From the NCBI GenBank assembly GCA_040388985.1, contig JAZKAU010000003.1, forward strand, positions 24,557 through 88,556: a stretch of DNA of 64,000 bases. Direction: 5' to 3'. Made by a program: the position numbers and the translations under genes. Under the pieces are notes generated by a model that made no database searches, was not told the origin of the DNA, and saw only the letters and a program-made list of their open reading frames with translations. The stretch is from Patescibacteria group bacterium (GTDB taxonomy: Bacteria > Patescibacteriota > Minisyncoccia > Phycocordibacterales > Phycocordibacteraceae). Below, piece after piece: positions 1,126 to 51,661 of the stretch. Within the stretch, counting starts at the first letter, position 1. The number at the start of each line of letters is the position of its first letter.

Positions 1126-1130
1126 GTCGT

Positions 1131-2648: not shown

Positions 2649-2650
2649 AT

Positions 2651-3552: not shown

Positions 3553-3669
3553 AATCTTGAGAACTTATAAGAAATATCTGAATGACTTTAGGTGTTATGC
3601 ACGGCTTGGACTATTCCGCGTAAAGAGACATTTGGCAGACTAAACCTATACAGACATAACCTCCCGCCT

Positions 3670-4188
3670 ATGACACATTCCATTCCGCCATCTTCAAAGA
3701 CACACATTTATGAACGAGGCTTCACGCTTATAGAAATACTGGTTGTCATCGGCATGATAGCAGTACTTGCAAGCGTCGTGCTTATAGCCATAAATCCTCT
3801 CCGGCAATTCGCGCAGGCCCGGAACTCGCAGCGCATAAGTAACGTGAATGCGATATTGAACGCCGTCGGTAACCGTCTCGCCGAACACCAAGGCATCTTT
3901 ACTGAGGCCAGTAGCACCTGCCCTGCTATTCCCTCTTCCGATATTGATATCGCAAAGAATCAGTATGATCTCCGGCGATGCCTCGTACCCACCTACATAT
4001 CCGAACTTCCGTTCGACCCGGACGGCGGAAGCAACACATGCATAAATGACGCCTGTAGTGACGGAGACTATGACACCCGCTACACCGTTCGTGAAGACAG
4101 TAGCTCAGGACGCATCACCGTCTGCGCTCCGAACGCCGGGCATGAGTCCTCGATTCCCGACAGCCAGAGGTATTGCCTAACCCGCTAG
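3670..4188 (+). CDS. Type IV pilin, candidate major pilin
   Basis: ATG at 3670 gives ...ERGFTLIEILVVIGMIAVLASVVLIAI, a GFTLIE motif plus TM helix, with Cys residues near the C-terminus suggesting a disulfide loop. Confidence 0.65.
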   Translation: MTHSIPPSSKTHIYERGFTLIEILVVIGMIAVLASVVLIAINPLRQFAQARNSQRISNVNAILNAVGNRLAEHQGIFTEASSTCPAIPSSDIDIAKNQYDLRRCLVPTYISELPFDPDGGSNTCINDACSDGDYDTRYTVREDSSSGRITVCAPNAGHESSIPDSQRYCLTR

Positions 4189-10123: not shown

Positions 10124-10284
10124 TTTTCCTAGTATACGACATTTCTTTCTTAGGAGCCAAATTGGCGAGTTAGAAAGAAAGAAGCGCTCTTGTAGCGTCG
10201 AGTCGCGATGCATTTGGGAAATGTGCTCTATATTGGGTATAGCAGACCGGTCTTCGCAAAGATTGCGGTATCTTTAAGTGAGTT

Positions 10285-21032: not shown

Positions 21033-23852
21033 TTACTTGAAAAGCTCAAGCAAACCGTCGTAGTCCGAAGGCTCCCCTTCCCGCCATGTCCCGGTCAGCA
21101 GCTCGCCCATCACTGCTTCGAGAGTCGCGAGCAGGTCTTCGCGCGTCTCGTCATCGAGCGGCACCGGATATTCCTTCACGCCTTCGGTACCGACCTGGAT
21201 GATGGCAGCGCCGGTAGGAGCGTGGCCGTTTGCGCGCAGGAGAAGGTCGTAGAAGGCCAGCTGGCGGGCGTATTTCTCGTCCTTGATATGGATGTCGCTC
21301 GAGGTCTTGAAGTCGATGATGCGCTCGCCGCCCTGCGTCTCGAACACGGCATCAATCTTCCCTTGCAGCTTTATGGACTCCCCCGCGAATTCGCGAGTGA
21401 GCGTGAAGACTTTCTCAATAGCTGCAGTCTCGGGTATGGCATCCAGCGCCAGATAACTCGCGAGGCTCTGACGGCTGTGTTCCACGATGCGCTCATAGGC
21501 GGCGTTGCGCGGCAGCAAGGAGCGCTTGAGGCATCCTTCGAGCGCGGCATAGGCTTTGGCATCAATCTTGGTCGAGAGGTATTCCGCAATACCTGCATGA
21601 ACGGCGGTACCAATGGTGGCCGCAGGCGACTCCGGCTCATGAAGCCGCAGGACACGCCGAGCGAAGAAGGTGGGCGGAGATTCCAGATACTCGTTAAATG
21701 CTGAAGGCGAGAGACCTTCTACCGTGAGGAATCGCTTCACGAGCGCGTTCACGGCAGGGAGAGGCTCTATCGTCGTGTGCAGGAGTGGCAATGGATCGAA
21801 GGAGGACGTGATAGCCGGTAAACCCTCCGGAATAAGCACGGACGGCGGCGTATCGCGTCCGTCGCCGTTCTCGGCGCTGTACGACAGAATGACGGAATCC
21901 TTCGCGCGCGTAAGCGCCACGTAGAAGAGCTTGGTCACGTCCTCAAGCGATCGGCTCTGGTCGACCGGTGAAGGTATCTTCGCCGGAAGTCCCCCTTTCT
22001 CCCAGGCGCGCGCCGTGAGGCCCACGATGAAGACATCCTTGAATTCCATCCCTTTGGCCTTATGCGCGGTAATGATGGTCACCTTCCCTTCTTCGGTCGT
22101 TACGCTCGTCTTCACGCTCTCAAGTCCGTGTTCATGCGCCTTCGTGAAGGCTTCGACGACCCGGGCGAAGCTCTGGCCGGGATCTCGCGCGACTATCTCC
22201 TCCAGGTGCATGAATACCCGGCGCAGGAGCTGCACGTCCTCGAAATGATCCGCGTGCGAGAGGACGTAGTCGCGCGCTCCTGTCTGCGCGAGCAGCTGCG
22301 ACAGGAGCGGGAGCGGAGCAGTTGCGAGCGCAGCGTTCTGGAGCTCGCGCAGCGAGGCCGCAAGTTCCGGATATCCGTTCTCAAGCGACGTCCATAGTTC
22401 CCGATCGCGATTTTTCAGAAGCAGGCTCGCCCGGTCCTCAAGGCTCATAGGCCACCAGGGCGCGAGCAGCGCCTCGCGCAGCGCCGCTATATCGAGCGGA
22501 TTGGCAACCGCGCGCATAAGCGCGAGCACGGAGCGCATGAAGGGGCGGCTTGAGAGCATCACGTCGCCGGCGCGCAGTATCGGAATTCCCATAGCTCCCA
22601 GATGCTCGGCGAAAAGATTCGCCGTCGCGTTGCGGCTTGAGATGATGGCTATCTCATGGGGTAGCGTGCCGTCCGCGATAAGCGCCTCTACGAGGCGCGC
22701 CACTTGGTCGCGCTCAGCGAGCGGATCGGGGGCGGTCAGGAGTTCTATCTTGGCCTCTCCATCGCGCGAGCTTGCGAGCGGCTGATGCTCTCCTGTGGAG
22801 GCCGGGACGGCTTGTATGAGCGTGTGTGAGGCGTCGAGGACGCCCTGGAGGGAGCGGTAACTCTGCGTCAGGTATACCAGCTCGGTTCGCGGATACTGCT
22901 CTATGAAGGTTCCGAAATGCGAGGAGTCGGCGCCTTGGAAGCGGTAGATGGCCTGTTTCTCATCCCCCACCACGAAGATGTTCGGATGCTCGTCGTAGGC
23001 CATGCAGTCGAGGAAGGCATGCTGCAGCGCATTGGCGTCCTGGTGCTCGTCGGCGAGCACATATTGATATTGCTCCTGCACGCTCGCGCGCAGATCAGCG
23101 TCCGCGCGCAGACCATCCACCGCGATACGTAGCACGTCCGCGAAGTCGTACACATCTCGCTTCTCCTTGAGCGCCTCGTACGCCTCTATGAGCCGCGCAG
23201 CCTCCTCGCCCTTCTGGAGTCGCTCAAGCTTCTTCGCGCCTTCGGGCTTGAAGTCCCCTTTCTTGCCGTACTTGCTATCGCGCGCGTAGTAGAGGCTCTC
23301 ATCAACTCGGATACGGTCTCCTTCAGCTTCGAGCCAGGCGCGGTAGTCAGAAAGGCTAATGCGCTCACGCAGCAGGTCGTCACGCAAGCGCGCGAGGTCG
23401 CGCAGATAGAAATACGGAGACTTTGCAGTACGCAGCGCGACTAAGTCTTCGGTCTCAAGCACCTCGCGCCAGAGCAGCGTACTCTCCACGTCCCCTGCCA
23501 GGCGCTTCCCGCGCGCCTCCGGGAATGAATCCGCATAAGTCGAGAGCAAGTGTTCGGCGAAGCCGTGGAAGGTCGCGATATAGACTTCGCGCGCTGCCGT
23601 CTCGCCGATAAGCGTGCCGAGCCGTTTACGGATGGTGCGCGCAGCCGACTCCGTGAAGGTGAGCGCGAGGATATTCGTCGCGTTCGCCTGCGTAAGGCGG
23701 AGAATGTTGGCGATACGTAGCGTGAGGATATGCGTCTTCCCGGTCCCGGGGCCCGCGATGACCATGACCGGCCCTTCCACCGTATCCACCGCCTTCTTCT
23801 GCGCCGGATTCAGCCTTTGGTATGCCTCGTCGAATGCCGTGGTGTCCTGCAT
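21033..23852 (-). CDS. UvrD/PcrA-family helicase fused to a C-terminal PD-(D/E)XK (RecB/AddA-like) nuclease
   Basis: Walker A VIAGPGTGKTH, helicase motifs (TFTESAA, YQYVLADEHQDAN, VVGDEKQAIYRFQGA) and a C-terminal IDAVFE...IIDFKTSS...QLAFYDLLL nuclease motif. Confidence 0.85.
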   Translation of the reverse strand: MQDTTAFDEAYQRLNPAQKKAVDTVEGPVMVIAGPGTGKTHILTLRIANILRLTQANATNILALTFTESAARTIRKRLGTLIGETAAREVYIATFHGFAEHLLSTYADSFPEARGKRLAGDVESTLLWREVLETEDLVALRTAKSPYFYLRDLARLRDDLLRERISLSDYRAWLEAEGDRIRVDESLYYARDSKYGKKGDFKPEGAKKLERLQKGEEAARLIEAYEALKEKRDVYDFADVLRIAVDGLRADADLRASVQEQYQYVLADEHQDANALQHAFLDCMAYDEHPNIFVVGDEKQAIYRFQGADSSHFGTFIEQYPRTELVYLTQSYRSLQGVLDASHTLIQAVPASTGEHQPLASSRDGEAKIELLTAPDPLAERDQVARLVEALIADGTLPHEIAIISSRNATANLFAEHLGAMGIPILRAGDVMLSSRPFMRSVLALMRAVANPLDIAALREALLAPWWPMSLEDRASLLLKNRDRELWTSLENGYPELAASLRELQNAALATAPLPLLSQLLAQTGARDYVLSHADHFEDVQLLRRVFMHLEEIVARDPGQSFARVVEAFTKAHEHGLESVKTSVTTEEGKVTIITAHKAKGMEFKDVFIVGLTARAWEKGGLPAKIPSPVDQSRSLEDVTKLFYVALTRAKDSVILSYSAENGDGRDTPPSVLIPEGLPAITSSFDPLPLLHTTIEPLPAVNALVKRFLTVEGLSPSAFNEYLESPPTFFARRVLRLHEPESPAATIGTAVHAGIAEYLSTKIDAKAYAALEGCLKRSLLPRNAAYERIVEHSRQSLASYLALDAIPETAAIEKVFTLTREFAGESIKLQGKIDAVFETQGGERIIDFKTSSDIHIKDEKYARQLAFYDLLLRANGHAPTGAAIIQVGTEGVKEYPVPLDDETREDLLATLEAVMGELLTGTWREGEPSDYDGLLELFK

Positions 23853-23945
23853 ATATTCCCAGTGTACCAGGCTCTGCCAAGGGGCTTAATGGCGGGAATT
23901 CTTGTGGTATCGTGATTGCGGGACAAAGTGTCCGGGAGGTAAGCC

Positions 23946-24089
23946 ATGCAAAAGAATCGGAAGCGCCGCATCGACTGGAGAATCTTCGGCGGCCTCATGG
24001 GTATCGGCTCGTTGCTGATAGTCGGAGGTGTTGCAGTATTCGTTGTCGACCAGCTCAGCGATGACGGGTTGGGCAGCGAAGCGGCGTAG
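23946..24089 (+). CDS. Candidate small membrane protein (47 aa)
   Basis: GGGAGG sits 6 nt upstream of the ATG. The product has one TM helix, IFGGLMGIGSLLIVGGVAVFVV, and is basic at the N-terminus. Confidence 0.3.
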   Translation: MQKNRKRRIDWRIFGGLMGIGSLLIVGGVAVFVVDQLSDDGLGSEAA

Positions 24090-24175
24090 GACGCAAGCCA
24101 GGCACGAACGAGCACAGCCAGCGCGCAGCGCCACACAAGCTCGCCGGAGGGTGATTCCTTCCGGCGGCTTTGCTT

Positions 24176-24733
24176 TTAATACCGATACCTATGCAGTTCG
24201 CAGCGCTTATTTTTATAGTCGAGGATAGTGCGGGCGACCTGCGCCCAGAAGCGCGCGGAGTGATTATGTTCGCGCACGTGGCAGAGCTCATGGACGATAA
24301 GATAGTCAGCGAGGTCTGGCGGCAGGTGCGCGATGCGGTAGTTGAAGGATAGGTTGCCCGCTGCCGAACAGCTTCCCCACCGCGTCTTCTGATTGCGTAT
24401 CGAGAGCGTGCCGTACGGAAATTCGTAGAGCGCGTTGAAATACTGGAGGCGCTCGCGAGCGAGCGCTCGCGCAGCTTCCACCGCTTCCTTGTATCCTCTC
24501 GTGCCGCGGCGCAACCGCGGCAGTTCTATTCCCTCCTCTCGCTTACCTGAATTCTTACGCTTCCTGAACGCCTCTCGTGCTTTCTCTATCCAGGCCTCCT
24601 TCTCCCGCACCCACTTCTCCACCGCTCTCATACCGACTCTCGCGGGCTTCGTGACCACAACCCGTCCGTCCGGAAACACCGAGATGCGCAGGTGCCTTGC
24701 TCGCGCACTCTCCCTAATTTCTAAGCCTTCCAT
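24176..24733 (-). CDS. YgjP/DUF45-family zinc metallohydrolase (M48/WLM-like HExxH)
   Basis: Motif HELCHVREHNHSARFW. Confidence 0.65.
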   Translation of the reverse strand: MEGLEIRESARARHLRISVFPDGRVVVTKPARVGMRAVEKWVREKEAWIEKAREAFRKRKNSGKREEGIELPRLRRGTRGYKEAVEAARALARERLQYFNALYEFPYGTLSIRNQKTRWGSCSAAGNLSFNYRIAHLPPDLADYLIVHELCHVREHNHSARFWAQVARTILDYKNKRCELHRYRY

Positions 24734-24807
24734 ATTCCCATCCTACAAGACATAATGGAAGGTTTCTTATCTCTAGGTATTGCATCTTTAAATCGTAGAT
24801 ATATACT

Positions 24808-25362
24808 TCATCTATCACCACGAGAAGCGCCCTGCGAGGTTCCGTCCTCTCGGGGTTCTTTTCTTTTATAGGCAAGCTTTGGGTGTAGATCATTCATAAA
24901 GGCAAGGTAGCCTGATTCAAGACGCTTAAGCAATACAGAATATTTATATTGATTAGGAATCAATAATTTCCTGAGCTTCTTCTGTTCGACCAGGTATTTT
25001 ACTAAGCAGTGAAAATCACCATCGCCGGTTACTAGTACCGCCTGCCCGTAGTTAGGATATTCAATCATGGCATTAAGGACTAGCTCGGCATCTACGTTAC
25101 CCTTGGTGCTACCGTCCCGGTATCTGAGCGTCGGTTTAAATATACAGATAAACCCTGATTCTTGGAGCCTCGTATACAGATCAGCATTACCTTCTACGTA
25201 TCCTATAAACAAATAAGCCTTCTCAACGCCATATTTCTCAGTCAGATATATGCGAAAGCGACGCATATCCAGTTTCCAACCAAGAGCGCGAATGCTCAAA
25301 TATAGATTCTGACTATCGATAAATGCATAATTCTCCTTCTTCCTCGACATACGGTAAAGCAT
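24808..25362 (-). CDS. NYN-domain (LabA-like, PIN-fold) predicted RNase
   Basis: AFIDSQNLY ... NVDAELVLNAM ... VLVTGDGDF matches the NYN/COG1432 pattern. The local sequence is AT-rich. Confidence 0.65.
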   Translation of the reverse strand: MLYRMSRKKENYAFIDSQNLYLSIRALGWKLDMRRFRIYLTEKYGVEKAYLFIGYVEGNADLYTRLQESGFICIFKPTLRYRDGSTKGNVDAELVLNAMIEYPNYGQAVLVTGDGDFHCLVKYLVEQKKLRKLLIPNQYKYSVLLKRLESGYLAFMNDLHPKLAYKRKEPREDGTSQGASRGDR

Positions 25363-25493
25363 ATCGAGATATAGGTAACCAATATCTCAAGAAAATATGG
25401 GCCAAAGATGAGCGCCGGTGGTATCTGCACACTTATCCTGTGAATAAAGGGTTGAGGCATTCCGAGCTTACTCCAGCATGCTACTCTTTTGAC

Positions 25494-25949
25494 ATGGATA
25501 TCGCCTTCGACTCAAAAGCTATAAAAGACCGGACCTTCGTCCTGGCCTTCTTTACCCTCTTCTTCCTCATCGCGCCGGGCATCGCCGGCATCTATCTCTA
25601 TTTCCCTGCGTATATAGTCGAACTCGACTCGATAAAGCTCATCCTCCTCTCAGTGACCTGCACCATGCCTATAGCGGTACTTAACGCCATAACCATAGGC
25701 ATGTGCGAACGCCGGCAGAAGGAACGGCGGGATGACCTGTTCCATGATTTCGTCTTCGGGACCATCGTGAGCGGCACGCTCATATATTTCGTTGTGATCC
25801 TCTCGCACCTCATGCACTGGTCAGTACCCCGGCTCGGCGCTCTCCTCCTCGTCGTCGAGATCCTGACCATCCTGGGCATCTGGCTGAACGGCAAGCGTGC
25901 CCACAAGCTCCTCCTGCGCCGCACCACCGAGGACGAAGAAGCTATCTAA
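25494..25949 (+). CDS. Hypothetical membrane protein
   Basis: 4 TM helices. The start is placed at an internal ATG to avoid overlapping the NYN gene. The longer ORF from 25323 remains possible. Confidence 0.35.
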   Translation: MDIAFDSKAIKDRTFVLAFFTLFFLIAPGIAGIYLYFPAYIVELDSIKLILLSVTCTMPIAVLNAITIGMCERRQKERRDDLFHDFVFGTIVSGTLIYFVVILSHLMHWSVPRLGALLLVVEILTILGIWLNGKRAHKLLLRRTTEDEEAI

Positions 25950-26296
25950 GTATCAAAGCTGCCTCAAGGCAGCACGTAACCCAGGCCTATAAATAAGAAG
26001 AGTCCGTATCGCCGCCGGCGACACGAACCCCTTTCTACAAGCACTGCGACTGCGACTACTCGCCGTCGCTCGAGCCGCGCTCGGCGGAATAATGCGGATG
26101 GCGCCTGTGCCCAGGCCGATAGCTCGCGCCCATATGCGCCGGCCTCGGATCGGGCCGACGGTTACCGCGGTTATTCCCCTTGCTCCAGCTGCTATTGCTC
26201 ATTGCAATCCTCTCCCCTATTACAGGACTTCACAAAACACCGGCCCTTCTGGACCGGATTTCCCCATACTAAACCACACTTCCCCCCGTGTCAAAG

Positions 26297-26716
26297 TCAA
26301 TCTTCTATTTCCAATAAGAAATTCTTTATCTTCTCGAAAGCCGCGAGCTTCTTCTTTTCAGTCAGCTCGTGCTCCCATACGCGCATGACTCGCCACCCGT
26401 TCCTTCTGAGACGTGCGAGTGTCCTTCGGTCACGCTTGATATTCGCCTCGATCTTGTCCTGCCAATAGACCTTGGGGAGCTTGTGCTTCCAATCCGGAAA
26501 ACGATATCCGTGCCAGAAATCTCCGTCTATGAAGATGGCGAGCTTCTTGCTCGGTACTGCTACGTCCGGACTTCCTGATACCCGCTTATAATGCCGTTGG
26601 AAATGTATCCTCTCCTTCCGCAGGTATCGGAACACCTTCATCTCCGGCTTCGTTCCTTTGGGCCGGATGCGAGACATTACTTCGCTCCTCTTCTCTTTCG
26701 TGAAGATATCAGCCAT
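26297..26716 (-). CDS. vsr: Very-short-patch repair endonuclease Vsr
   Basis: Vsr motifs MADIFTKEKRSEVMSRI and FIDGDFWHG, with a size near 139 aa. It overlaps the upstream C5-MTase gene by 8 nt, the classic dcm-vsr arrangement. Confidence 0.75.
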   Translation of the reverse strand: MADIFTKEKRSEVMSRIRPKGTKPEMKVFRYLRKERIHFQRHYKRVSGSPDVAVPSKKLAIFIDGDFWHGYRFPDWKHKLPKVYWQDKIEANIKRDRRTLARLRRNGWRVMRVWEHELTEKKKLAAFEKIKNFLLEIED

Positions 26717-27959
26717 CCGCTCTCTTGATGAGTTCCCTGCCAAGACGTTCGACTATGCCGACCACGAGCGCATTGCCCATGAAGAATGCACGCTGGTTAT
26801 CTGATGCTCCAGCGGTGTGGTTCTCGGGAAACATATTCAGCTTCTCGAGCTCGAGAGGGATGAGCCGGCGATAACGTCCTGAGCTAGTACGTATGACATG
26901 TTTGAAGCGTGACGCGCCGGATCCTCCCTCACCGGTAACGATGGTGCGCGACGGCTTATCGAGCGGATCGGGGAACGCCATCGATCCTTCCGAATAGTTA
27001 TATTTGAATCCATCCTTGCTCCTACGTTCTTCCGTCTTACCGCTTTTATGCCTTCTCCATTCCTCGAGCCTATCCTTAGGTATGAAATACTCTTCAGGGA
27101 TCTTGCTTTCAGGGACTACTATATGCTTCAGGAAGGTGCTTTCCCCTTCATAATTGGGCATGATCTTTACGGTCAAGACGTTTCCGTCTATCATGACCCC
27201 GGCATTGTGGAATATGCTGGCTTTGCTGTTCAGATTCAGCTTGGATTCGACTTCATTCGCGACAGGCAGCTGAATCGTATCTATGGAGCCGCCCAGAGGA
27301 TGAATCGGGAAGGCCTTCGGCATCACGCCTGCTTTCATTAGCCAGCCGAGAGCATCCTTCTTGATGGCTTGATACTGAGTGGTTCCTTTCTTATAGCCAA
27401 GGATATACACTCTGCGTCTGCGCTGCGGCATCCCGTAATCCGCAGCGTTTATCACTCTCCACTCGATCGCATAGCCGAGCTCGGCGAGCGAGGCGAGCAT
27501 GATGGCGAAGTCCCTTCCCCTCTTGGACACGGGAGATTTCAATAACCGGTCGACGTTCTCTAGCATAAGATATCTCGGCGCTTTCTTTCCTTTCTCTCGC
27601 AGGATCCGATATATCTCCCACCAGAGAACGCCTTTCTTGCCGACGAGTCCGGCCGCCTGACTCAAGGTCCGCGCTACGGAGTAATCCTGGCATGGGAAAC
27701 CTCCGACCAGGAGATCGTGATCAGGAATCTCATCGACAGGCACATCGGAGATATCAGTATTCGTGAATCTGCGCCTGGAGGACTGAGGTTCATGACCGAA
27801 TACGCGGCAATATGTCGTCCAGGCATGCTGGGAAGAATCCGGCTTACCCGGCTCCCATTGGTTGAACCAGACGGTATCGAAATCCTTCGAGGCTCGTTCG
27901 AAACCGACTCTGAAACCTCCGACTCCTGCGAACAGCTCAGCGACGCGCAATCTTTTCAT
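26709..27959 (-). CDS. dcm: DNA (cytosine-5)-methyltransferase
   Basis: Motif I ELFAGVGG, motif IV GGFPCQDYS and motif VI ENV. At 416 aa its size matches M.Sau3AI-type enzymes. Confidence 0.9.
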   Translation of the reverse strand: MKRLRVAELFAGVGGFRVGFERASKDFDTVWFNQWEPGKPDSSQHAWTTYCRVFGHEPQSSRRRFTNTDISDVPVDEIPDHDLLVGGFPCQDYSVARTLSQAAGLVGKKGVLWWEIYRILREKGKKAPRYLMLENVDRLLKSPVSKRGRDFAIMLASLAELGYAIEWRVINAADYGMPQRRRRVYILGYKKGTTQYQAIKKDALGWLMKAGVMPKAFPIHPLGGSIDTIQLPVANEVESKLNLNSKASIFHNAGVMIDGNVLTVKIMPNYEGESTFLKHIVVPESKIPEEYFIPKDRLEEWRRHKSGKTEERRSKDGFKYNYSEGSMAFPDPLDKPSRTIVTGEGGSGASRFKHVIRTSSGRYRRLIPLELEKLNMFPENHTAGASDNQRAFFMGNALVVGIVERLGRELIKRADG

Positions 27960-28004: not shown

Positions 28005-29423
28005 TCAGGCCTTCAGTACGGATTCTATATACTTCGCATTCAGCCAGAATGAACGCTTGATTTCCTGTGTCCCTTGCGGGGTCTCCTGCGTATCGCTGCT
28101 ATCTTTGGCATGAGGCCTGACATGAGCTACGGGACTGCCTGTAATCTTGGGCAGATCTCGATATCTTCCTTCCTCTATGCACCTGAGAGCAAGGTCGAAG
28201 ACACGTTCTGCTTCCGGAAAGTCTTCCGCCGGAAAGTTCCAGAACTTCACCTTTGACAGCCTTACCGCGCCCTCCGCTGTCTTCTGGAAAACGACGAACA
28301 GGAAGCGGCTCATTTCTAGTTCTGCATGGAAATCCGACATGATCTCTTCCTTCTGGTCATACCAGAGCTGAGTAATCAGATTCTTATAATCGAAAGCCGG
28401 GAATGATATTGATTCTCTCAGCGACCCGTCCGTCTCGAGCGTGACTACTCTCAGGGTCACATCGGCTTTCTCGAATTCCTCTATCTTATTCGACCCGGTG
28501 CCGGTAAGTATCCGGTTCGCCAGGAGTCGCTTGAAATTCTTAGGCCGGCTATCTGTCCTCCACCCCAGGATCTGCATGATTTCCGTATCGGACTTTCCTA
28601 TATACGGACCGAACTTATCCTCTACGACCTCATCGATGGTCATGTCATGCTTCTCTCCTCTATATATGGATTCCGCATCAGGTCTTGCGCCGAGCAGATT
28701 CCGCTGGATCAGATGATTCAGATAAGCCTGTTTCAAGGAGAATGCCCGAGGCTTCGCTGGAGTACGCGACATGGGCTGGTCGCGGACCACCCTGCTATTC
28801 CGAGCCTTCGTACAGGCGCCCAGGTAGAACGTATCCCCTTCAGAGAGCAGGTGCGCGTCGCCGCGGCGTATCTTATCGATGATGAATTGCCAATCCTTGC
28901 GAATCTGCTCGGCGTCCTGCTCTGATATATCTTCGAGGAGATCAAGGAGATGCACGAACTCGAATTCATAGTCGAGCACGCTCTGTCCCTTGTCCAGGTA
29001 CAGGTAGAACATGATCAGCAGGAGCCTGTTCTTCTCGAGGAACGAACTGGTCTCCCAGCGTTCGCTGATGACCTTGTCGTAGTCGATCATCGAGAACACG
29101 AGCCGTTCCTTGGCCACGTATCGCTTTGTCTTATGCCGCCTGAGCGGAGTCGACTTCAGCTCGATGCCGGCTAGCTTGAAATCGGCTTCTGCACGGCCAT
29201 TGTTAGCGATTCCGAATACATAGCGCTCTATGAGGTCCCCTAAGTAGCCTTTCCGGTTGGTGCCGTATCCGGCCAGCTTATCCTCTATCTCATCGAGCTC
29301 TTCTCGAGGAATGAACTCTTTCAGGGTCTTGTGCAAGGCACGGTTCGCGGCGGTGACGACTTCTTCCTCGGTTCTGTAGATAGTTTCAGGCATGGTATCT
29401 GATGCGGAATCAGTCATTTCCAA
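28005..29423 (-). CDS. Sau3AI/MutH-family type II restriction endonuclease (predicted GATC-specific)
   Basis: The N-terminal domain contains EADFKLAGIELKSTP, matching the MutH catalytic D..E.K block DFAALGVELKTIP. A second, degenerate MutH-like half resembles two-domain Sau3AI, and the 472 aa length is close to Sau3AI's 489. Confidence 0.7.
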   Translation of the reverse strand: MEMTDSASDTMPETIYRTEEEVVTAANRALHKTLKEFIPREELDEIEDKLAGYGTNRKGYLGDLIERYVFGIANNGRAEADFKLAGIELKSTPLRRHKTKRYVAKERLVFSMIDYDKVISERWETSSFLEKNRLLLIMFYLYLDKGQSVLDYEFEFVHLLDLLEDISEQDAEQIRKDWQFIIDKIRRGDAHLLSEGDTFYLGACTKARNSRVVRDQPMSRTPAKPRAFSLKQAYLNHLIQRNLLGARPDAESIYRGEKHDMTIDEVVEDKFGPYIGKSDTEIMQILGWRTDSRPKNFKRLLANRILTGTGSNKIEEFEKADVTLRVVTLETDGSLRESISFPAFDYKNLITQLWYDQKEEIMSDFHAELEMSRFLFVVFQKTAEGAVRLSKVKFWNFPAEDFPEAERVFDLALRCIEEGRYRDLPKITGSPVAHVRPHAKDSSDTQETPQGTQEIKRSFWLNAKYIESVLKA

Positions 29424-30066
29424 GGATACTCTTCCAGGAGCCTTTCGTCACTATCACATGGTCGATAACGGCTATATCGAGGATCCGTCCCGCTTGCACG
29501 AGTCTCTTGGTGACTTCCAGATCCGCAGCTGACGGCTCAGTATCTCCTGACGGATGATTGTGAGCGAATATGACTGACGAAGCGTGGCTGACTATGGATT
29601 GCTCGAATACCTCGCGCGGATGGACCAGGCTCTCGTTCAAGGTCCCTATCGACACCACGTCCCTACGTATCTCTTGCTCCCTGCTGTCCAGGTAGAAAAC
29701 CACGAAATGCTCCCTCTTGCTCTCGCGTATGTCCGACATCCTTTCCCAGACATCCTTCGCGGAGAGTAACACTGACGTCTTCTTATCCTTAAGTAATCTC
29801 CTTCCGAGCTCGAAACAAGCGACGATTCCGCTGGCTTTAGCTTTTCCTAGTCCGGGTATCTCACAGAGCTCAAGGAGGGTAGCTGTTCCAAGACCGATAT
29901 CCTTCCATCGCGCGAGCACTCTGCTTGATAGTTCGATTGCATTCGTGCCTTTCATGCCCGTACCGAGGAGGATCGCGAGCAACTCAGCATCCTTGAGCCT
30001 TTCCGGGCCATATCTCTCAAGCTTCTCGCGCGGTCGGTCCTTGCTATGAAACTCCTTTATCTTCAT
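29410..30066 (-). CDS. radC: RadC-like JAB/MPN-domain protein
   Basis: HhH region LLAILLGTG and JAMM motif HNHPSGDTEPSAAD. Confidence 0.8.
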   Translation of the reverse strand: MKIKEFHSKDRPREKLERYGPERLKDAELLAILLGTGMKGTNAIELSSRVLARWKDIGLGTATLLELCEIPGLGKAKASGIVACFELGRRLLKDKKTSVLLSAKDVWERMSDIRESKREHFVVFYLDSREQEIRRDVVSIGTLNESLVHPREVFEQSIVSHASSVIFAHNHPSGDTEPSAADLEVTKRLVQAGRILDIAVIDHVIVTKGSWKSILGND

Positions 30067-30075
30067 TGCTCAGGA

Positions 30076-30918
30076 TTAGACCGAGGATGCGTAATTCCGT
30101 ATGGCCAATTCGATGATGCTAGCGTCAGCTCCTACGCTTGCACCGAGGCTGCGCGGAGCGAGTATCCTGTGATACTCGAATCCAGGATATAAGTTCCTCA
30201 CCTTCTTTATGTCGTTATTACTCAAGAGCACCTTTCCGCCTCTTGCCTGCAGAGATCTCACGAAATCCGCGAGGTTGATCCTGTCCATTTCTGAGAATGT
30301 CTCAGGAGTATATTGAACGAAGCTTGTCCTTTTTATCGGATCGTAGCAAGGATCAAGATAGATAAAATCTCCTGACGATATATGAGGTACGATCTCCCTA
30401 TAATCTTGATGCACTATATCTACTCCCTGCAAGAGCCTGCTGGCTTCCAATATGACCTCTCTTGAGAAGACTTCCGCTTTCTTATATCGTCCATAAGGGA
30501 CATTGAATTCATTCTTAGAGTTCACTCTGAATAGACCGCTGTAGCAAGTCTTGTTCATATATATGAAGGCTGCGGCTCGCTCGACTCCTTTAAGGGCTTT
30601 CAGGTTGAATTCCTCCCTCGTCTGATAATAAAATTCTTCCGAATCTCTCTTCTTGAACCTTGACAGAGCGGTTAGCAATCCCTTCGGATTATCTCGTACG
30701 GCTTGATAAGTGAGCACGAGATCAGCATTAGCATCCGATATCAGGGAGAAATCCGGATTGTATTTCTGCTTTACGTAGAAGAAGACAGATCCGCCTCCGA
30801 GAAAAGGCTCGAAGTATCTTTCTATGGTCTCCGGAAAGAGAGTGTCAAGCGTATCGAGAATCCTGCGTTTTCCGCCTGCCCACTTCAGGAATGTCGGTAT
30901 GTTTAAGGTGTTCTTCAT
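30076..30918 (-). CDS. dam: Dam-family N6-adenine DNA methyltransferase
   Basis: The protein is collinear with E. coli Dam, matching FLKWAGGK, EPFLGGGSVF, YYQTREEFN, MNKTCYSGLFRVNSKNEFNVPYGRYKK and a DPCY variant of DPPY. Confidence 0.85.
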   Translation of the reverse strand: MKNTLNIPTFLKWAGGKRRILDTLDTLFPETIERYFEPFLGGGSVFFYVKQKYNPDFSLISDANADLVLTYQAVRDNPKGLLTALSRFKKRDSEEFYYQTREEFNLKALKGVERAAAFIYMNKTCYSGLFRVNSKNEFNVPYGRYKKAEVFSREVILEASRLLQGVDIVHQDYREIVPHISSGDFIYLDPCYDPIKRTSFVQYTPETFSEMDRINLADFVRSLQARGGKVLLSNNDIKKVRNLYPGFEYHRILAPRSLGASVGADASIIELAIRNYASSV

Positions 30919-32045
30919 CTTGTGCTTAATCCGGATTTCTCCATCAGATCTTTATACAGATCTGATTGGCCCTGTCCTCCCGGTATATATCTGCTCTTCG
31001 TAAAGTCATCCTGCTTCAAGTCTATCCTAGCGAAGACCTGTTGAAAATCCTCTTTGCTTGCAACCTTGCCAGGAGTATCGAATGAAAGATAGACGTCTCT
31101 CATGAATCTCATGAGAGCCACGAAACCTGTAGATTTATTCAATATCATCTGTACTCTCACCTCATTCCAAGCATCGGGCCACTTCAGCGACACCGCAGAG
31201 AAATAATTCCATACAATCTGAGCTATCTCCGCATCCTTTTCCTCGAGGAAGAGGTTCCTGAAAATCAGCTTGCTCGCCGAATCCCCTTCCGCTCTCTTCG
31301 GTACTCCTCCTCTCTTGTATATATCCCTATCAGTCATCGGATTCAGAGACAGGTACTTTAATAAGTATTCGACAAAAGTCGCTTGAGTTATCGTCTCTCT
31401 CTCTCCATCCTCTGCCACCCCCAGAATCTTGACTTTTCCTTCAAAAGGGCTCCCTTCTTTCTCGTTCAGGGCGCGTACGATCTGATGTGCGGTCTTCTGC
31501 GGACTTCTTGAAGTCGCGAAGGCGAATAAGTCCGCCACCAGCGACTTATTCACCTTCGTCTGAGATTTGTTTATCGTTGCAAACAATATCGCCTGGTCTT
31601 CAAGATCAATGTCGACGAAAATAGCGACGTTTGTCTCAAAACTAGAGGGTCGAGGACTGGCTTTTTCGAATCCAGCGGCTCGATGTTGTCCGTCGAGTAT
31701 CTTCGCAATCTCTCCATCCCTTCTAATCCGCATCCTCGAGCTCTTCTCGTCGTATTGAACGTTCGTGGAAGAGACAGAGAGTATTATCGCAGTCGGGAAA
31801 GCCGCGTCGACCAGATTCACGTATCTTGCAATCTCCTTGACCCTGGAGGCTGAGAGAGGTCTCTGTATACCGATGTATTTCTCAATCTCAGTCTCATTCC
31901 TCTCTCTATGACGGATGTCGCTATAGGAAATATCTACCAGATCTTGCATCTGCATTACGCCCATGTAAAAATCGCCTATAGGCTGCCTTACCTTGATAGA
32001 CTGGAATTCCACCCACTCATCCTTTAATGAAATTTTCATAGGCAT
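30915..32045 (-). CDS. DGQHR-domain protein (DndB-like, ParB/Srx fold)
   Basis: An exact ILDGQHRAAG motif together with an upstream IGIQRPLSASRVKEIARYV block. Its ATGA start overlaps the Dam gene, and its stop overlaps the downstream membrane gene. Confidence 0.75.
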   Translation of the reverse strand: MPMKISLKDEWVEFQSIKVRQPIGDFYMGVMQMQDLVDISYSDIRHRERNETEIEKYIGIQRPLSASRVKEIARYVNLVDAAFPTAIILSVSSTNVQYDEKSSRMRIRRDGEIAKILDGQHRAAGFEKASPRPSSFETNVAIFVDIDLEDQAILFATINKSQTKVNKSLVADLFAFATSRSPQKTAHQIVRALNEKEGSPFEGKVKILGVAEDGERETITQATFVEYLLKYLSLNPMTDRDIYKRGGVPKRAEGDSASKLIFRNLFLEEKDAEIAQIVWNYFSAVSLKWPDAWNEVRVQMILNKSTGFVALMRFMRDVYLSFDTPGKVASKEDFQQVFARIDLKQDDFTKSRYIPGGQGQSDLYKDLMEKSGLSTR

Positions 32046-32551
32046 TATCTTAGACTTTTCTTAATACCGTCGATGCTGCGCCTTTCTTCTTCCGCTACAT
32101 CGATTCCCTTGCTTAGCCTATCTATATAGTTAGAGAAATAATGTGCAAAAAGAGCGATTAACAGGAAGACGAGTGACGAATAGAATATGACAGCCTTATC
32201 CGGATTAATAAGCCCATCTATCGGAATCGAAAGCGTAGTGGCTAATATGGCATATAGGACCGAGGAGAGTATCAGGAAGCATATGCAAAGCCAGAACAGG
32301 ACCGAGGAGAAATCAAAATTCTTTTTCTTTGTAGCGTAAAGCAGATATGCTGAATTTATGTAGAAAGCTGCAGCATAAAGATAAAACTCTCCATGTGACC
32401 AGAATACGGTCCAGCCATGCCATTGAGACAAGATTAAGGAGATAGCTAATCCTATAATAAGTGGCAATAATCCGCCTATCACCGTCACGCTAAAGAGCAT
32501 GCTGGTTTCTTTGAAAATATTTGATCTGAATGTCAATGCCGAAAGAAACAT
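32045..32551 (-). CDS. Small 4-TM membrane protein, first gene of the DGQHR-Dam module
   Basis: 168 aa with 4 hydrophobic helices and a charged C-terminal tail, DVAEEERRSIDGIKKSLR. Its TAATG stop overlaps the start of the DGQHR gene. Confidence 0.45.
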   Translation of the reverse strand: MFLSALTFRSNIFKETSMLFSVTVIGGLLPLIIGLAISLILSQWHGWTVFWSHGEFYLYAAAFYINSAYLLYATKKKNFDFSSVLFWLCICFLILSSVLYAILATTLSIPIDGLINPDKAVIFYSSLVFLLIALFAHYFSNYIDRLSKGIDVAEEERRSIDGIKKSLR

Positions 32552-32771
32552 GTCGATTCGTTAAAATCTAAGACGACTAAACCTCATGAGGTGATTTTAC
32601 AACGAATGTCGGTATAACCTAGAGATATCAGGAGTATTGATATCTAGAAACTTCATAAAGATCTTATGTGCTCGAGGAAGCCATATCCTAAGGGCTATTA
32701 GCCGTCGCAATCTTGATATGAGGTTATCAATAATTACTCGTGGATTCCTAGAGAATCACGACTAGGCTGAC

Positions 32772-32806
32772 AAGCAAAGAGGCGCCCGGGTCTGGGACGC
32801 CTCTTT
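32772..32806 (-). terminator. rpoD terminator hairpin
   Basis: gcaaagaggcgcccgggtctgggacgcctctttgc abuts the rpoD stop. Confidence 0.6.
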
Positions 32807-32808
32807 GC

Positions 32809-34095
32809 TTAGTATGATTTCAGTCTTCGGGATTTTTCATGGGTCCGGATCTTTTCAAGAGCCTTCGCCTCGATCTGGCGGATGCGCTCGCGGGTGACGC
32901 CGAACTCCTTCCCTACTTCCTCGAGCGTGTGGTACACGCCGTCAAGGAGACCGTGGCGCATCTCAAGGATCTTGCGCTCCTTAGGGGAAAGATCATCGAG
33001 AATGTCGCGGACCTGTTCGGTGAGGATGCGTTCGGATGATTCCTGGACCGGGGACGGAATCTTATCGTCTGCGATGAAGTCGCCAAGCGTCGAATTCTGG
33101 TCGTCGTCAGAGCCTACGGGATTCTCGAGCGAGAGGGTGTCCTGATTAATCTTCTCGATCTGGTAGATCTTATCTACTTCGACACCCATCTCGACTGCCA
33201 CTTCTTCCGGTTGCGGATCGCGGCCGAGCGTCTGCGCGAGGCGGCGGGATACCTGCTTGTACTTGGCGATGGTCTCGACCATGTGCACCGGGATACGGAT
33301 GGTACGGGACTGATCGGCAAGCGCGCGAGTGATGGCCTGGCGAATCCACCAGGTAGCGTAGGTCGAGAACTTATAGCCCTTCTTCCAGTCGAACTTGTCG
33401 ACGGCCTTGAAAAGGCCGATATTACCTTCCTGGATAAGGTCGAGGAGGGTGAGGTCGGGTGAGCGTCCGACGTATTTCTTGGCGATAGACACGACGAGGC
33501 GGAGGTTGGAACGGGCGAGGATGTTGCGCGCCTCGTCGTCGCCGCTCTCAATGCGCTTGGCGAGCTCCTTCTCCTCGTTCCCGGTCAGAAGCGGGTACTG
33601 ACCGATCTCACGCAGGTATATCTGGATGGAGTCGTAGCTTCCGCTATCGCGGCTCTTGATGTTGCGTCCGGCGAGGTACTCGTCAGCCTGATCCTCGAGC
33701 ATGCCGCCTTCGAGGATGTCGATGCCGGAGATGGTGAAGCGCTCATAGAGCTCATCGAGGAAGGTGACGTCGTCCTCGATGTGCGGGAATTCGCGGAGGA
33801 TCTCGCTGTACGTAATATAGCCGCGCTCCTTTCCTTTCTGGATGAGGCGTTCGGCCTTGTCGGTGCGGTCGCTTGCGGCCTTCGCCTTCACGCCGGTTAC
33901 GGCCTTACGTACGACATTCATCGCGCGGGCGTTCTTAGCTACCTTCTTGGGTGCAGTCTTCTTAACCGCCTTCTTTACGGCTTTCTTGACTGCCTTCTTT
34001 ACTACTTTTTTGGTAGTCTTCTTAACAACTTTCTTCGGAGCTGCCTTCTTTGGTGCAGACTTTTTCTTCGGAGCTGCCTTCTTCTTTATAGCCAT
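32809..34095 (-). CDS. rpoD: RNA polymerase sigma-70 factor RpoD with a Lys/Ala-rich histone H1-like N-terminal tail
   Basis: Regions 1.2-4 are present ([46 protein letters not shown]). The N-terminal 50 aa consist of [11 protein letters not shown] repeats. Confidence 0.9.
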
Positions 34096-48642: not shown

Positions 48643-48682
48643 AAAATAGATACGCCGCGCGGAAGCGCGGCGTATCTATTTT
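48643..48682. terminator. Bidirectional terminator between rnr and smc
   Basis: aaatagatacgccgcgcggaagcgcggcgtatctatttt. Confidence 0.75.
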
Positions 48683-50931
48683 GCGACTTGTACGGCTTCG
48701 TCGAACTTTATAGAAAGGAGCTTGCTAATGCCATCGCCGCCCATAGTGACGCCGTAGAGGATACCCGCGCGACTCATGGTCTCGCGATTATGGGAGATGA
48801 CGATGAGCTGGGACTTCTTCGCTAGCTCTTCGATCATGTCGCCATAGCGACGGGAGTTGGCCTCGTCGAGCGCAGCGTCGGTTTCGTCGAGTATGAGGAA
48901 CGGCGGCGGATTCACCTGGCTCATGGCGAAGATGAGCGCGATGGAGGTCAACGCGCGCTCGCCGCCTGAGAGCTGCATCAAGGACTGCACGCGCTTCTTG
49001 GGCAGTGCCACCGATATCTCGATACCTGCCTTGCCTGGCTTGCGGATACGGCTCTCCTCGTATGAATCTTCGTCATCTTCGTCCTCATTCTCCTCGATAT
49101 CCTCGTCCGCGCGTCCAGCAGTCGGCAGGTCCTCCAGCACGAGCTTCGCATTCCCTCCCCCGAACATGAGGCTGAAGAATTCGCTGAATGATACATTCAC
49201 CTTCGTCAGGCCTTCGGTGAATGTCTTGTTGAGTTCCGTATCAAGATCGGTGATAAGCTCGCGCAGGCCGGTCGACGACTTCGTAAGGTCCTCGAGTTCG
49301 CGGGCGAGGAATTCCTCGCGGGCGACCGCCTCGTCGTATTCCTTCTGCACGTCTTCCCCGCCCCCGCCCGCCTCCTCGACCCGTATCTTGAGGCGCTCGA
49401 GTCCTCGTTTGCGGTCTTCCTGGAGACTGCGGTCCTCGGTCGGGAGCGCAGTCAGAGGCGCGTACGACAGAGCGCTCGCGCCAGCGAGCGCGAGCGCTTC
49501 GGCGCGTTCGCGCTCAAGCGACTGGCCGGCATTCTCGAGTTCGCGGAGCCTGGCGTCTAGCCGCACGACGGCCGCTTCAGCGGCAGCCTTGGACTCTGCG
49601 AGTCCAAGCACCCGGTGCCGCTCTTCGCGGCCGGTCTCGTCATAGGCCATGCGCGCTTCGCGCGCGCGAAGCAGTGCCTCGCGATTCTCGTCTATATCGC
49701 GGGCGAGCTGCGCTTCCTTCTCGAGGAAGCTTGCGCGCTCGTTCTCGAGCGTGTGCACGAGCTGTTCCTCGTCTGCGAGATAGTCGTCGTTCGGCGTGCC
49801 GAATCGCTCGAAGAAGGCGACCACGACGCTCTTGAGCGACTCTAGGGCGGCGCGCAGCGCCGCCGGTTCTGATTCTTCTGACCGTGCCGCTTCGCGCTCT
49901 ACTTCCGCGCGCAGCGTATCGAGATCCTCACGCGGAATCTTCACGTATGGGTCATGCGCGACCGCGACGCTGCGCTTCTTCGCCCCTTCGAGCGCGCCTT
50001 CCACGCGCCCGAGCTCGCGCGCGAGCGTACCGCGCTCCTGACCGAGCCTGTCGAGCGTGCGCTCGATCGTCCGTATACGCTCAGCATGCTTGGCACCCTC
50101 CACATCGCTCGTCGCGCGCTCGTCGAAGGCGGCAAGTTCGCGTGCGGCTGCGGCCAAGCGCTCGTTCGCCCCGGCACGCTCGCTGGTCGCCTTCTTCGTT
50201 TCCGTATCGATATAGAATTCCTCGATGGCAAAATAGGTTCTGCACACCTCTGCCAATTCCTGTGCAAGAGATGCCGCGCGTTCGATGCGTTCGACCTGCT
50301 TCTTGAGGAATCGGATATGAGGCGCAATCTCGCGGCGCAGACTTTCCACCTCGCGCATGTTGCTGTCCGTCTTCTCGAGCTTACGCTCGGCTTCTTGCTT
50401 CTTGAATTCGAAGGATTTGAGGCCGAGCGCGTCCTCAAGCATAGCGCGGCGCTCGCGCGGATGCGCAAGCAGGATGCGGTCGGCTTCGCCTTGGGAGATG
50501 ATGTGGTGTCCTGTCTCGCCGATGTTGGCGGACGAAAGAAGTTCCTGCACGTCGCGCAGGCGGACTTTTGAGCCATTCACGAGATATTCGCTTGCGCCGT
50601 CGCGGAAGACCGCGCGCTCGATGGATACTTCGTCGAAGTCGAGCTTCGGGAAGATTCGCGCTCCTCCTCGCGGCTGATTATCGAAGACGATGGCCACTGC
50701 CGCGCGTGAAGCTCGCGGATTCGTATTAGACCCGCTCCAGATAAGGTCCTCGCTGCGCTTCCCGCGCATGCTCTTCATGGATTGCTCGCCGAGCGCGAAG
50801 CGGAAGGCTTCGGCGACATTGCTCTTTCCGGAGCCATTGGGCCCCACTATCGCGGTGGTCGCATTACTGAAGTCGAGCACGGTCTTACGCGCGAATGACT
50901 TGAATCCCACTATCTCGAGCCGTTTCAACAT
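48676..50931 (-). CDS. smc: Short SMC-family chromosome segregation ATPase
   Basis: N-terminal Walker A GPNGSGKSN, a long coiled-coil and a C-terminal signature LSGGERALTSIALIFA...LILDETDAALD. The start is at internal MLKRLEIVGFKSF. The protein is only about 752 aa and no hinge motif was recognised. Confidence 0.75.
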   Translation of the reverse strand: MLKRLEIVGFKSFARKTVLDFSNATTAIVGPNGSGKSNVAEAFRFALGEQSMKSMRGKRSEDLIWSGSNTNPRASRAAVAIVFDNQPRGGARIFPKLDFDEVSIERAVFRDGASEYLVNGSKVRLRDVQELLSSANIGETGHHIISQGEADRILLAHPRERRAMLEDALGLKSFEFKKQEAERKLEKTDSNMREVESLRREIAPHIRFLKKQVERIERAASLAQELAEVCRTYFAIEEFYIDTETKKATSERAGANERLAAAARELAAFDERATSDVEGAKHAERIRTIERTLDRLGQERGTLARELGRVEGALEGAKKRSVAVAHDPYVKIPREDLDTLRAEVEREAARSEESEPAALRAALESLKSVVVAFFERFGTPNDDYLADEEQLVHTLENERASFLEKEAQLARDIDENREALLRAREARMAYDETGREERHRVLGLAESKAAAEAAVVRLDARLRELENAGQSLERERAEALALAGASALSYAPLTALPTEDRSLQEDRKRGLERLKIRVEEAGGGGEDVQKEYDEAVAREEFLARELEDLTKSSTGLRELITDLDTELNKTFTEGLTKVNVSFSEFFSLMFGGGNAKLVLEDLPTAGRADEDIEENEDEDDEDSYEESRIRKPGKAGIEISVALPKKRVQSLMQLSGGERALTSIALIFAMSQVNPPPFLILDETDAALDEANSRRYGDMIEELAKKSQLIVISHNRETMSRAGILYGVTMGGDGISKLLSIKFDEAVQVAK

Positions 50932-50974
50932 TGCTCTCAGTATAGCGTACGAGAAACGCTCAGCGCGCGAGTTT

Positions 50975-51661
50975 TTACCACCCGGTCTTCTGAAGCGCGT
51001 TCTGCGCAGCTGCCTGTTCTGCTTCTTGTTTAGATTGACCCTCGCCGGTCGCAATCTGTTCCTTACCGAGGAAGACGCCTACCGTGAAGCGCTTATCGTG
51101 ATCCGGGCCTTTCTCCTGCATGGTCGTGTAGGTGGGAGTGGTACCGCGCTTGTCCTGAGCAAGCTCCTGGAACTTGCTCTTGGCGTCCTGCCAGCTTCTC
51201 TGCTGGACGACGGTGTCGATCTTCCCGTAGAGATGCTGCGCAAGGAAGGCTTCGGCAGCGTCGTATCCCTGATCGAGATAGAGAGCGCCGAGAAGCGCCT
51301 CGAAGGCGTTCGCAAGGATGATCTGGCGCGCGCGGCCGGTATCCTTTGACTCGCCTTTTGAGAGCAGCAGCATGGAGTTGAGTCCGAGCACCTCGGCAGT
51401 ATCGGCGAGCGAATAGGTATTCACGAGCGCGGCGCGGAAAGCCGTGAGCTCTCCCTCTGGCTTGTTCGGATATTTATCAAAAAGGAAGCGCGTGACCGCA
51501 AGCTCAAGCACGGCATCGCCGAGAAACTCAAGACGTTCGTTATGCGCCTTCGAACTCTTGTTCTCGTTCAGATACGAACGATGCGTCAGCGCCTCTTCCA
51601 GGAGCGCCATATTCTTGAACGTGAGGCCGAGCGTGCGCGCGTGCGTATGAAAGTCGGTCAT
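50975..51661 (-). CDS. rnc: Ribonuclease III
   Basis: Signature ERLEFLGDAVLE and a C-terminal dsRBD. It sits upstream of smc. Confidence 0.9.
   Translation of the reverse strand: MTDFHTHARTLGLTFKNMALLEEALTHRSYLNENKSSKAHNERLEFLGDAVLELAVTRFLFDKYPNKPEGELTAFRAALVNTYSLADTAEVLGLNSMLLLSKGESKDTGRARQIILANAFEALLGALYLDQGYDAAEAFLAQHLYGKIDTVVQQRSWQDAKSKFQELAQDKRGTTPTYTTMQEKGPDHDKRFTVGVFLGKEQIATGEGQSKQEAEQAAAQNALQKTGW

Follow-up and report, generated by a model that had tools for sequence, protein, structure and literature searches.

A 64,000-nucleotide (nt) stretch of Patescibacteria DNA, called the window here and used as the reference for all coordinates, carries three coupled minus-strand genes, which encode a small transmembrane (TM) protein, a DGQHR-domain protein and a Dam-family N6-adenine DNA methyltransferase. 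We found that this trio is a widespread, genuine and apparently undescribed module, which has the TM and DGQHR genes as its conserved core and draws its methylase from several families. Our preferred reading, tentative and with somewhat less than an even chance of being right, is that the module may be a methylation-based self/non-self system, in which the DGQHR protein would be the reader and its membrane partner would provide the output.

Results

A coupled three-gene array in a GC-poor patch

The first gene of the trio encodes a small integral membrane protein of 168 amino acids (aa) (32045..32551, minus strand), recognised from its open reading frame (ORF), its hydropathy and the helices of its AlphaFold2 (AF2) model. 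It is followed on the same strand by the gene for the 376-aa DGQHR-domain protein (30915..32045, minus strand) and by that for the 280-aa Dam-family methylase, of the D12 class (30076..30918, minus strand), both assigned from their ORFs and from hidden Markov model (HMM) matches. The TAA stop codon of the TM gene overlaps an ATG (TAATG), and the stop of the DGQHR gene overlaps the start of dam (ATGA). A public gene call puts the DGQHR start 6 nt further downstream, at the ATG at 32039, which gives a protein of 374 aa; the TM and DGQHR genes are tightly coupled whichever of the two starts applies. The G+C content is 0.44–0.47 across 30–33 kb versus about 0.52–0.62 in the flanks. The extent of the trio, the lengths of the TM and DGQHR proteins, the gene overlaps and the GC-poor patch had been reported in an earlier sequence-only reading of this DNA, and all of them were recovered in the ORF list and the composition profile.

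Recurrence of the trio and its conserved core

To define how often the trio recurs, one genome per species was scanned, which yielded 80 loci with DGQHR orthologues (42–60% identical). These loci span more than 12 phyla and include Bacteroidota, Campylobacterota, Acidobacteriota, Chloroflexota, Verrucomicrobiota, Gemmatimonadota, Elusimicrobiota and Planctomycetota, together with Alpha-, Beta- and Gammaproteobacteria. An exhaustive profile search for the DGQHR protein returned 558 clusters (50% identity) at E ≤ 1e-30 and 1551 at E ≤ 1e-10. When the ORFs of the 80 loci were clustered, three families stood out, namely the DGQHR protein itself (80 loci), an upstream hydrophobic protein of 150–240 aa (71 loci, plus several divergent equivalents) and Dam (67 loci). 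All other clusters had at most six members, the only small recurrent families beside the module were methylases and restriction endonucleases (REases), and the flanking genes were otherwise unrelated. In at least 75 of the 80 loci, the gene that directly precedes the DGQHR gene encodes a small TM protein, its obligate upstream partner. A DNA methylase gene is likewise adjacent in 75 of the 80, encoding Dam in 67 and a D12 variant, MT-A70 or N6_N4 methylase in the rest. The three genes therefore do co-localise elsewhere, and the first condition that the sequence-only reading had named as refuting its proposal, that they never do so, does not hold.

The contiguous order Dam–TM–DGQHR is the usual one (51 loci, with median gaps of 2–3 nt). 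The order seen in the window, TM–DGQHR–Dam, is common to its closest relative (locus L090, 69% identity) and to L047 and L065, and in a Parcubacteria locus (L091) the TM and DGQHR genes are followed by a D12-variant methylase. Pairwise identities of the DGQHR protein correlate with those of the TM protein at a rho of 0.83, and with those of Dam at a rho of 0.36 (Mantel p = 0.002 for both). Because co-evolution is tight in the first case and weak in the second, and because methylases are swapped between loci, we consider the TM–DGQHR pair to be the conserved core and the methylase to be exchangeable. Hence, the trio first proposed from the window stands as a recurrent unit, whereas its particular gene order is not the usual one and its core is the pair.

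The loose attachment of the methylase would also fit a pair that is an independent selfish or exclusion cassette (acting in addiction, plasmid exclusion or exclusion of DNA entry), which lodges by restriction–modification (R-M) genes and works independently of methylation. The weak co-evolution of the methylase with the pair favours such a cassette, as do the variable type, position and orientation of the methylase, the three loci that lack one, and the occurrence of the cassette beside chemically unrelated phosphorothioation systems (see below). We nevertheless judge this explanation to be improbable, given that a modification gene is adjacent in 75 of the 80 loci, with near-zero gaps or overlaps in 51, which is far beyond mere co-residence in islands, and given that every recurrent partner is a DNA-modification enzyme. 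Moreover, two different DNA modifications as partners are more simply explained by a role in reading modifications.

The DGQHR protein

The DGQHR protein of the window scored 217.3 bits with the DGQHR model TIGR03187 (cut-off 58.85). It contains the exact DGQHR pentapeptide that had been noticed earlier (residues 118–122), together with a QR motif (residues 61–62) and an FxxxN motif (residues 155–159). Across 29 orthologues from several phyla, which are 52–69% identical to it, Q61-R62, D118-G-Q-H-R122, E149-D150-Q151, F155...N159 and many positions of the C-terminal half are invariant; Q61-R62, DGQHR, F155 and N159 are also invariant across DndB and DpdB. Foldseek searches with the AF2 model (predicted local distance difference test [pLDDT], 76.8) gave weak matches to CTP-bound ParB and ATP-bound sulfiredoxin (Srx), SspE and BrxU were among the structural matches, and a fold search against viral models gave DndB-like, GmrS-N, AIPR and ParB/Srx matches, down to E = 3e-11. 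The N-terminal domain is accordingly modelled as a ParB/Srx fold of the nucleoside triphosphate (NTP)-binding type, with an intact QR/DGQHR/FxxxN constellation. A DndB-like protein binds ATP and GTP (bioRxiv 10.1101/2025.10.10.680097). For the conserved helical C-terminal domain the fold searches gave no structural match, and a sequence search of the PDB with the DGQHR profile returned zero matches.

DndB has been described as a ParB domain plus a HEPN domain (Makarova 2013, PMC3632139). A HEPN RNase, which would have an Rx4-6H motif within a four-helix fold, was considered for the segment R180-SPQKTA-H187 of the window protein, which resembles an Rx6H motif. The motif is invariant in the m6A (N6-methyladenine)-linked clade, but neither the dnd clade nor DndB retains it, and the window protein gave no HEPN match in HMM or fold searches, so the idea was discarded. 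A weak HEPN_Swt1 match is confined to a separate 766-aa paralogue (see below).

The Pfam name of the N-terminal domain, 'DndB', and the fact that PADLOC-DB v2.0.0 matched the protein solely with its DpdB and DndB models, over this same domain, could indicate that the trio is part of a larger dnd, ssp or dpd cluster and that its DGQHR protein is a conventional DndB or DpdB. The scores are far from that: 23.5 bits with the DndB equivalog TIGR03233 (cut-off 328) and 70.1 bits with the DpdB equivalog NF041060 (cut-off 300), the latter over the N-terminal domain only, and the Pfam DndB model spans residues 17–171 alone. Nor did Dnd, Ssp or Dpd models match any of the large ORFs of the 64-kb window. 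The flanks hold rpoD, dnaG and rpoC on one side and genes for RadC, a Sau3AI-type R-M system, Vsr, NYN, YgjP and a UvrD-type helicase on the other, and no dnd or dpd partner recurs across the 80 orthologous loci. By these scores and this gene content, the protein is classed as neither DndB nor DpdB, as had been supposed from the window alone; a conventional cluster is refuted for the window and retains hardly any probability.

A sister clade in phosphorothioation islands

The best full-length relative of the DGQHR protein is TIGR04172, dnd-associated DGQHR protein 1, with a score of 207.5 bits, which is below the cut-off of 450, and an alignment of residues 15–370 to positions 2–379 of a model of 381. 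From this alignment, we place the window protein as a sister of dnd-associated DGQHR protein 1. Proteins of TIGR04172 were defined by their strict co-occurrence with DNA phosphorothioation genes (PMC3226654). We examined sister-clade loci on four plasmids and in Escherichia coli 55989, and in all five a coupled ORF of 172–180 aa with four hydrophobic segments lies directly upstream of the DGQHR gene, and the pair adjoins dndBCDE or pbe-type phosphorothioation genes. In E. coli 55989 (L095, 12071–13753), the TM–DGQHR pair sits between dptH and dndE in the dnd island, and 125 E. coli genomes carry it. RefSeq annotates the E. coli TM partner as 'AgrB family', its PF04647 score (24.0, cut-off 23) being borderline. 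When the TM partners of the m6A clade were compared with those of the dnd clade, no homology was detected (hhalign probability, 2.7%); what they share is the layout only.

The constant company of modification genes raises another explanation, namely that the TM–DGQHR pair serves the methylase in an accessory or regulatory capacity, repressing or tuning its expression like DndB or assisting it as an ATPase like DpdB. Both characterised DGQHR proteins play such roles, and co-transcription with the modification enzyme gene is the rule for the pair. DpdB is an ATPase helper of DpdA. DndB is an ATP-modulated repressor (PMC4507180). However, the window protein is far below the cut-offs for both and related to them in its N-terminal domain only. 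In the sister clade, the dnd cluster also encodes a true DndB, which indicates that DGQHR protein 1 is not the regulator there, that the two proteins have distinct roles and that neither makes the other redundant. A specific interaction with the enzyme is disfavoured by the interchangeability of four unrelated methylase families, and Dam-family methylases act alone, as is textbook knowledge. Finally, a regulator would leave the obligate, co-evolving membrane partner without a role. We therefore regard this explanation as unlikely.

The membrane protein and the methylase

Hydropathy of the window protein and of 75 homologues indicated four TM helices, in agreement with the four-TM protein proposed earlier, plus a charged C-terminal helix. 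The AF2 model of the window protein, a single-sequence and low-confidence one (pLDDT 65), is all-helical, with helices at residues 2–45, 47–74, 81–106 and 117–167. Conservation in the family is found at P30 and G54-E-F..LY. A word-index search with the TM protein recovered itself only, and homologues were therefore taken from the loci. It had no match in Pfam, NCBIfam or PADLOC-DB v2.0.0, and no AgrB (PF04647) match at E ≤ 1. Full-text searches of openly accessible literature found no paper describing the trio. Both results agree with the sequence-only reading, whose author was not aware of the trio as a named system.

The Dam protein of the window is a full-length member of its family, as had been stated, scoring 258 bits with TIGR00571 (cut-off 114.85) and 197 bits with PF02086. 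It carries an EPFLGGGSV motif (the FxGxG S-adenosylmethionine motif) and is matched in PADLOC-DB v2.0.0 by generic methyltransferase models. Since its best match in the PDB is DpnM (2dpm, 6.5e-58), and given its similarity to EcoDam, the enzyme is probably specific for GATC. In motif IV, for which the canonical form is (D/N/S)PP(Y/F/W), it has DPCY in place of DPPY (residues 189–192, window 30352–30363). All 67 other module-linked Dams have DPPY, and DPCY is found again in the 69%-identical orthologue of L090 (3373–4209); the change is therefore a variant maintained in this lineage and does not stem from faulty sequencing.

GATC itself occurs 271 times in the window (1–64000), compared with 373 occurrences expected from a second-order Markov model, and is thus mildly under-represented; base composition alone would predict 243.

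Genomic contexts of the pair

At several loci the TM–DGQHR pair is associated with R-M genes. It lies inside DpnII cassettes in L048 and L059, in the order Dam, DpnII REase, TM, DGQHR and DpnA-like methylase, and L058 has a DpnII-family REase further upstream. A BglII-family REase and an MT-A70 methylase are found beside the pair in L039 and on pRiA4; a BglII/BstYI-family REase, together with an adenine methylase and a helix-turn-helix regulator, on the Acinetobacter plasmid pTR3_1 (15 kb); and a BamHI-family REase in L071. The type members of the DpnII, BglII/BstYI, BamHI and Sau3AI families cut sites with a GATC core. All classical type II REases of identifiable family beside the pair (L048, L058, L059, L039, L071, L082, L083 and the window) belong to such GATC-core families.

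Other operon-linked genes encode Mrr-type nucleases, an AAA_21 protein plus HNH, a HerA-like ATPase and integrases, and toxin–antitoxin genes are found near the module on pTR3_1, on pRiA4 and in L090. In four loci (L003, 278–2584; L004, 4965–7265; L023; and L069, 5040–7376), an extra protein of 760–780 aa is encoded between Dam and the TM gene. It is a DGQHR paralogue within the operon, and the copy of L004 combines a DndB/DGQHR domain with a weak C-terminal HEPN_Swt1 match. We found no relatives of the module in 2.9 million viral contigs, and phage entries of GenBank held solely distant DGQHR proteins (23–26% identity). The module therefore seems to belong to islands of cellular or plasmid DNA and not to phages.

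Neighbouring genes and the surrounding sequence

After dam, four further genes continue in the same direction with gaps of at most 45 nt. The first, 9 nt downstream of dam, encodes a RadC-like JAB protein (29410..30066, minus strand; PF04002, PF20582). RadC was considered as a fourth component of the module and rejected, being found near it in just 2 of the 80 other loci. Next come genes for a Sau3AI-family type II REase (28005..29423, minus strand), with 420 bits for NF040973 (cut-off 300), a MutH domain and 264 bits for the PADLOC model REase_II; for a C5-cytosine DNA methyltransferase (26709..27959, minus strand; PF00145, 201 bits; PADLOC MTase_II, 491 bits), the presumed cognate of this REase; and for the very-short-patch repair endonuclease Vsr (26297..26743, minus strand; TIGR00632, 112 bits), which is the usual companion of a C5-cytosine methylase. 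The sequence-only reading had spoken of a lone Dam, which does not hold with a complete Sau3AI-type R-M system and Vsr one gene away.

Judged from its gene content, the Sau3AI-type set is a neighbouring, separate system of the GATC type. Enzymes of this type are blocked by 5-methylcytosine (m5C), and not by m6A, at GATC. The system would be self-sufficient with its own C5-cytosine methylase, and Dam would therefore be left to pair functionally with the TM and DGQHR genes. The trio of L090 likewise has a C5-cytosine methylase at its flank, 55% identical to that of the window, and m6A and m5C may thus both occur at GATC in this lineage.

Upstream of the trio lie the housekeeping genes rpoD, dnaG, rpoC and rpoB. 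The AT-rich spacer that separates rpoD from the TM gene (32552..32808, minus strand), recognised from its sequence and the GC profile, opens with a hairpin after rpoD and is the probable promoter region of the array. A strong sigma-70-type promoter match is absent from it, the promoter scan of this region being not above shuffled expectation. At the other end, the terminator scan placed the first terminator-like hairpin downstream of the seven co-directional genes at 26240..26257 (minus strand), and inside the array it found just one, weak terminator-like site on the minus strand, within the TM ORF.

Some features of the wider window were recorded in passing. The rpoD-like sigma factor (32809–34095) has a long Lys/Ala-rich N-terminal repeat that resembles a histone H1-like tail. 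Beyond vsr (21033–25949) are a 208-aa hydrophobic plus-strand ORF and genes for an NYN-domain protein, a YgjP-like metallopeptidase and a 939-aa UvrD/PD-(D/E)XK helicase-nuclease. A run of plus-strand ORFs at 634–4188 has pilin-like hydrophobic N-termini ('GFTVAEVMLV', 'GFTLIETLIY'), which suggests a type IV pilus or competence pseudopilus cluster. ABC/SMC-type ATPases at 48676–51054 and 9170–10213 match the PADLOC models mad3, LmuB and AriA; these matches probably reflect generic ABC-ATPase similarity and not defence genes.

Discussion

A possible modification reader with a membrane partner

We propose that the trio may function as a self-contained, horizontally mobile three-gene module. The N6-adenine methylase, here the DpnM-like Dam acting probably on GATC, would mark host DNA. 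The presence of this mark would be read by the DGQHR protein, as a DNA-binding switch of ParB/Srx fold that depends on NTP; jointly with its co-evolving four-TM partner, it would act against incoming DNA that lacks the mark. If it works as SspE and DndI do, contact with modified self DNA would promote NTP hydrolysis and lead to release, and on unmodified DNA the DGQHR protein would stay engaged and trigger the output. The output is the least certain step: as there is no recognisable nuclease domain, it would be either an effect at the membrane exerted via the TM partner (abortive infection or a block to the entry of DNA) or some new activity residing in the C-terminal domain. The sequences themselves show the linkage of the genes, their family and fold assignments, the exchange of the modification enzyme and the genomic contexts; it is by analogy that we infer NTPase or nickase activity, DNA binding, methylation sensing, a defence function and an effector role.

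Several lines of evidence point to self/non-self reading based on modification. These are the linkage of the pair to several modification families, including one of other chemistry in the sister clade; the ParB/Srx fold that the DGQHR protein would share with the modification sensors SspE, DndI and GmrS/BrxU; the co-evolving membrane partner; the R-M, plasmid and island contexts; and the absence from viral contigs. Other observations weigh against it. No nuclease or other effector domain was recognised in the TM or the DGQHR protein by Pfam, NCBIfam, PADLOC, PDB or fold searches. Methylases of the MT-A70 or BglII type in place of Dam would modify other sites, so that the DGQHR protein would have to read varied contexts or co-vary with its methylase. 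In the stretch available for three full-length loci (L013, L021 and L028), no methylase was recognised, and in one of them, L021, an insertion sequence integrase is inserted upstream. The dnd-clade DGQHR gene of E. coli is interrupted by an in-frame stop, its two parts being annotated as separate ORFs. Lastly, the catalytic motif of the window Dam is the non-canonical DPCY.

A more general proposal would be that TM–DGQHR is a 'modification reader plus membrane output' cassette used in at least two chemically different self-marking systems, m6A and phosphorothioation, which would make the module the first m6A-gated immunity with a ParB-like NTPase and a membrane effector instead of a fused nuclease. 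We regard this as possible but doubtful.

If the proposed mechanism is true, Bacteroidota, Proteobacteria, Patescibacteria and other phyla would contain hundreds of Dam-type methylases that count as 'orphan' but in fact mark self DNA for an immunity system so far overlooked. Sensing of the kind seen in SspE and DndI would extend from phosphorothioate to ordinary base methylation, with a membrane-coupled output, and a function could be assigned to the cassette of dnd islands, including that of the 125 E. coli genomes. The module is well supported computationally as a recurrent unit of the type that combines DNA modification with a ParB-like reader. At about 2.5 kb, it is also directly testable, with cultured carriers such as Echinicola vietnamensis, Tenacibaculum adriaticum DSM 18961, Flavobacterium anhuiense FLA4, the Acinetobacter plasmid pTR3_1 and pRiA4.

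Comparison with known systems

Kiwa consists of KwaA, a small multi-TM protein, and KwaB, a cytosolic DNA-binding effector. The trio resembles it in that a small protein with about four TM helices is encoded directly upstream of a soluble partner that would be directed at DNA; it differs in that Kiwa has no methylase, and the PADLOC KwaA and KwaB models did not match the trio.

With type II R-M systems of the GATC group (DpnII, Sau3AI, BglII/BstYI and BamHI), the module shares a putative self-marking methylase similar to Dam and DpnM, which can be swapped between families, and the pair is embedded in or located beside such systems. In contrast to them, the trio has no recognisable REase, the TM and DGQHR proteins giving no match to an REase family in Pfam, NCBIfam or PADLOC, and most loci (Dam–TM–DGQHR only) are without any REase.

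DndB and DpdB share the TIGR03187 DGQHR domain with the window protein, whereas its C-terminal half is distinct and the genes of their systems are not present in the window. The recent survey of dnd systems, the most thorough one, mentions only DndB.

The closest functional parallels would be SspABCD–SspE and IscS–DndBCDE–DndI, which likewise combine a modification module with a protein of the ParB/Srx superfamily that has a D-G-Q-x-R phosphate-binding motif. In Salmonella, dndI adjoins dndBCDE and is co-transcribed with dndFGH; its product, a ParB-like (DUF262) phosphorothioate-sensing ATPase and nickase, is a shown defence effector that responds to modified self DNA with increased ATPase activity and release (PMC11662687). 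The E. coli TM–DGQHR pair lies beside the same dnd/dpt genes that dndI accompanies in Salmonella. Unlike SspE and DndI, the window module has base methylation as its predicted modification and an obligate membrane partner; its motif is DGQHR and not the DGQQR of DUF262, and Pfam, NCBIfam and PADLOC matched no DUF1524/HNH (His-Me) nuclease domain, of the type carried by GmrSD, SspE and DndI, in the DGQHR protein.

The nearest relative in the gene sense is dnd-associated DGQHR protein 1. Its partner modification is phosphorothioate, whereas that of the window module would be m6A, and residues that are invariant in the window clade, such as R180 and H187, are missing from the dnd clade. What the two have in common is full-length homology of their DGQHR proteins, at 25–28% identity, and the same two-gene TM–DGQHR layout next to DNA-modification genes.

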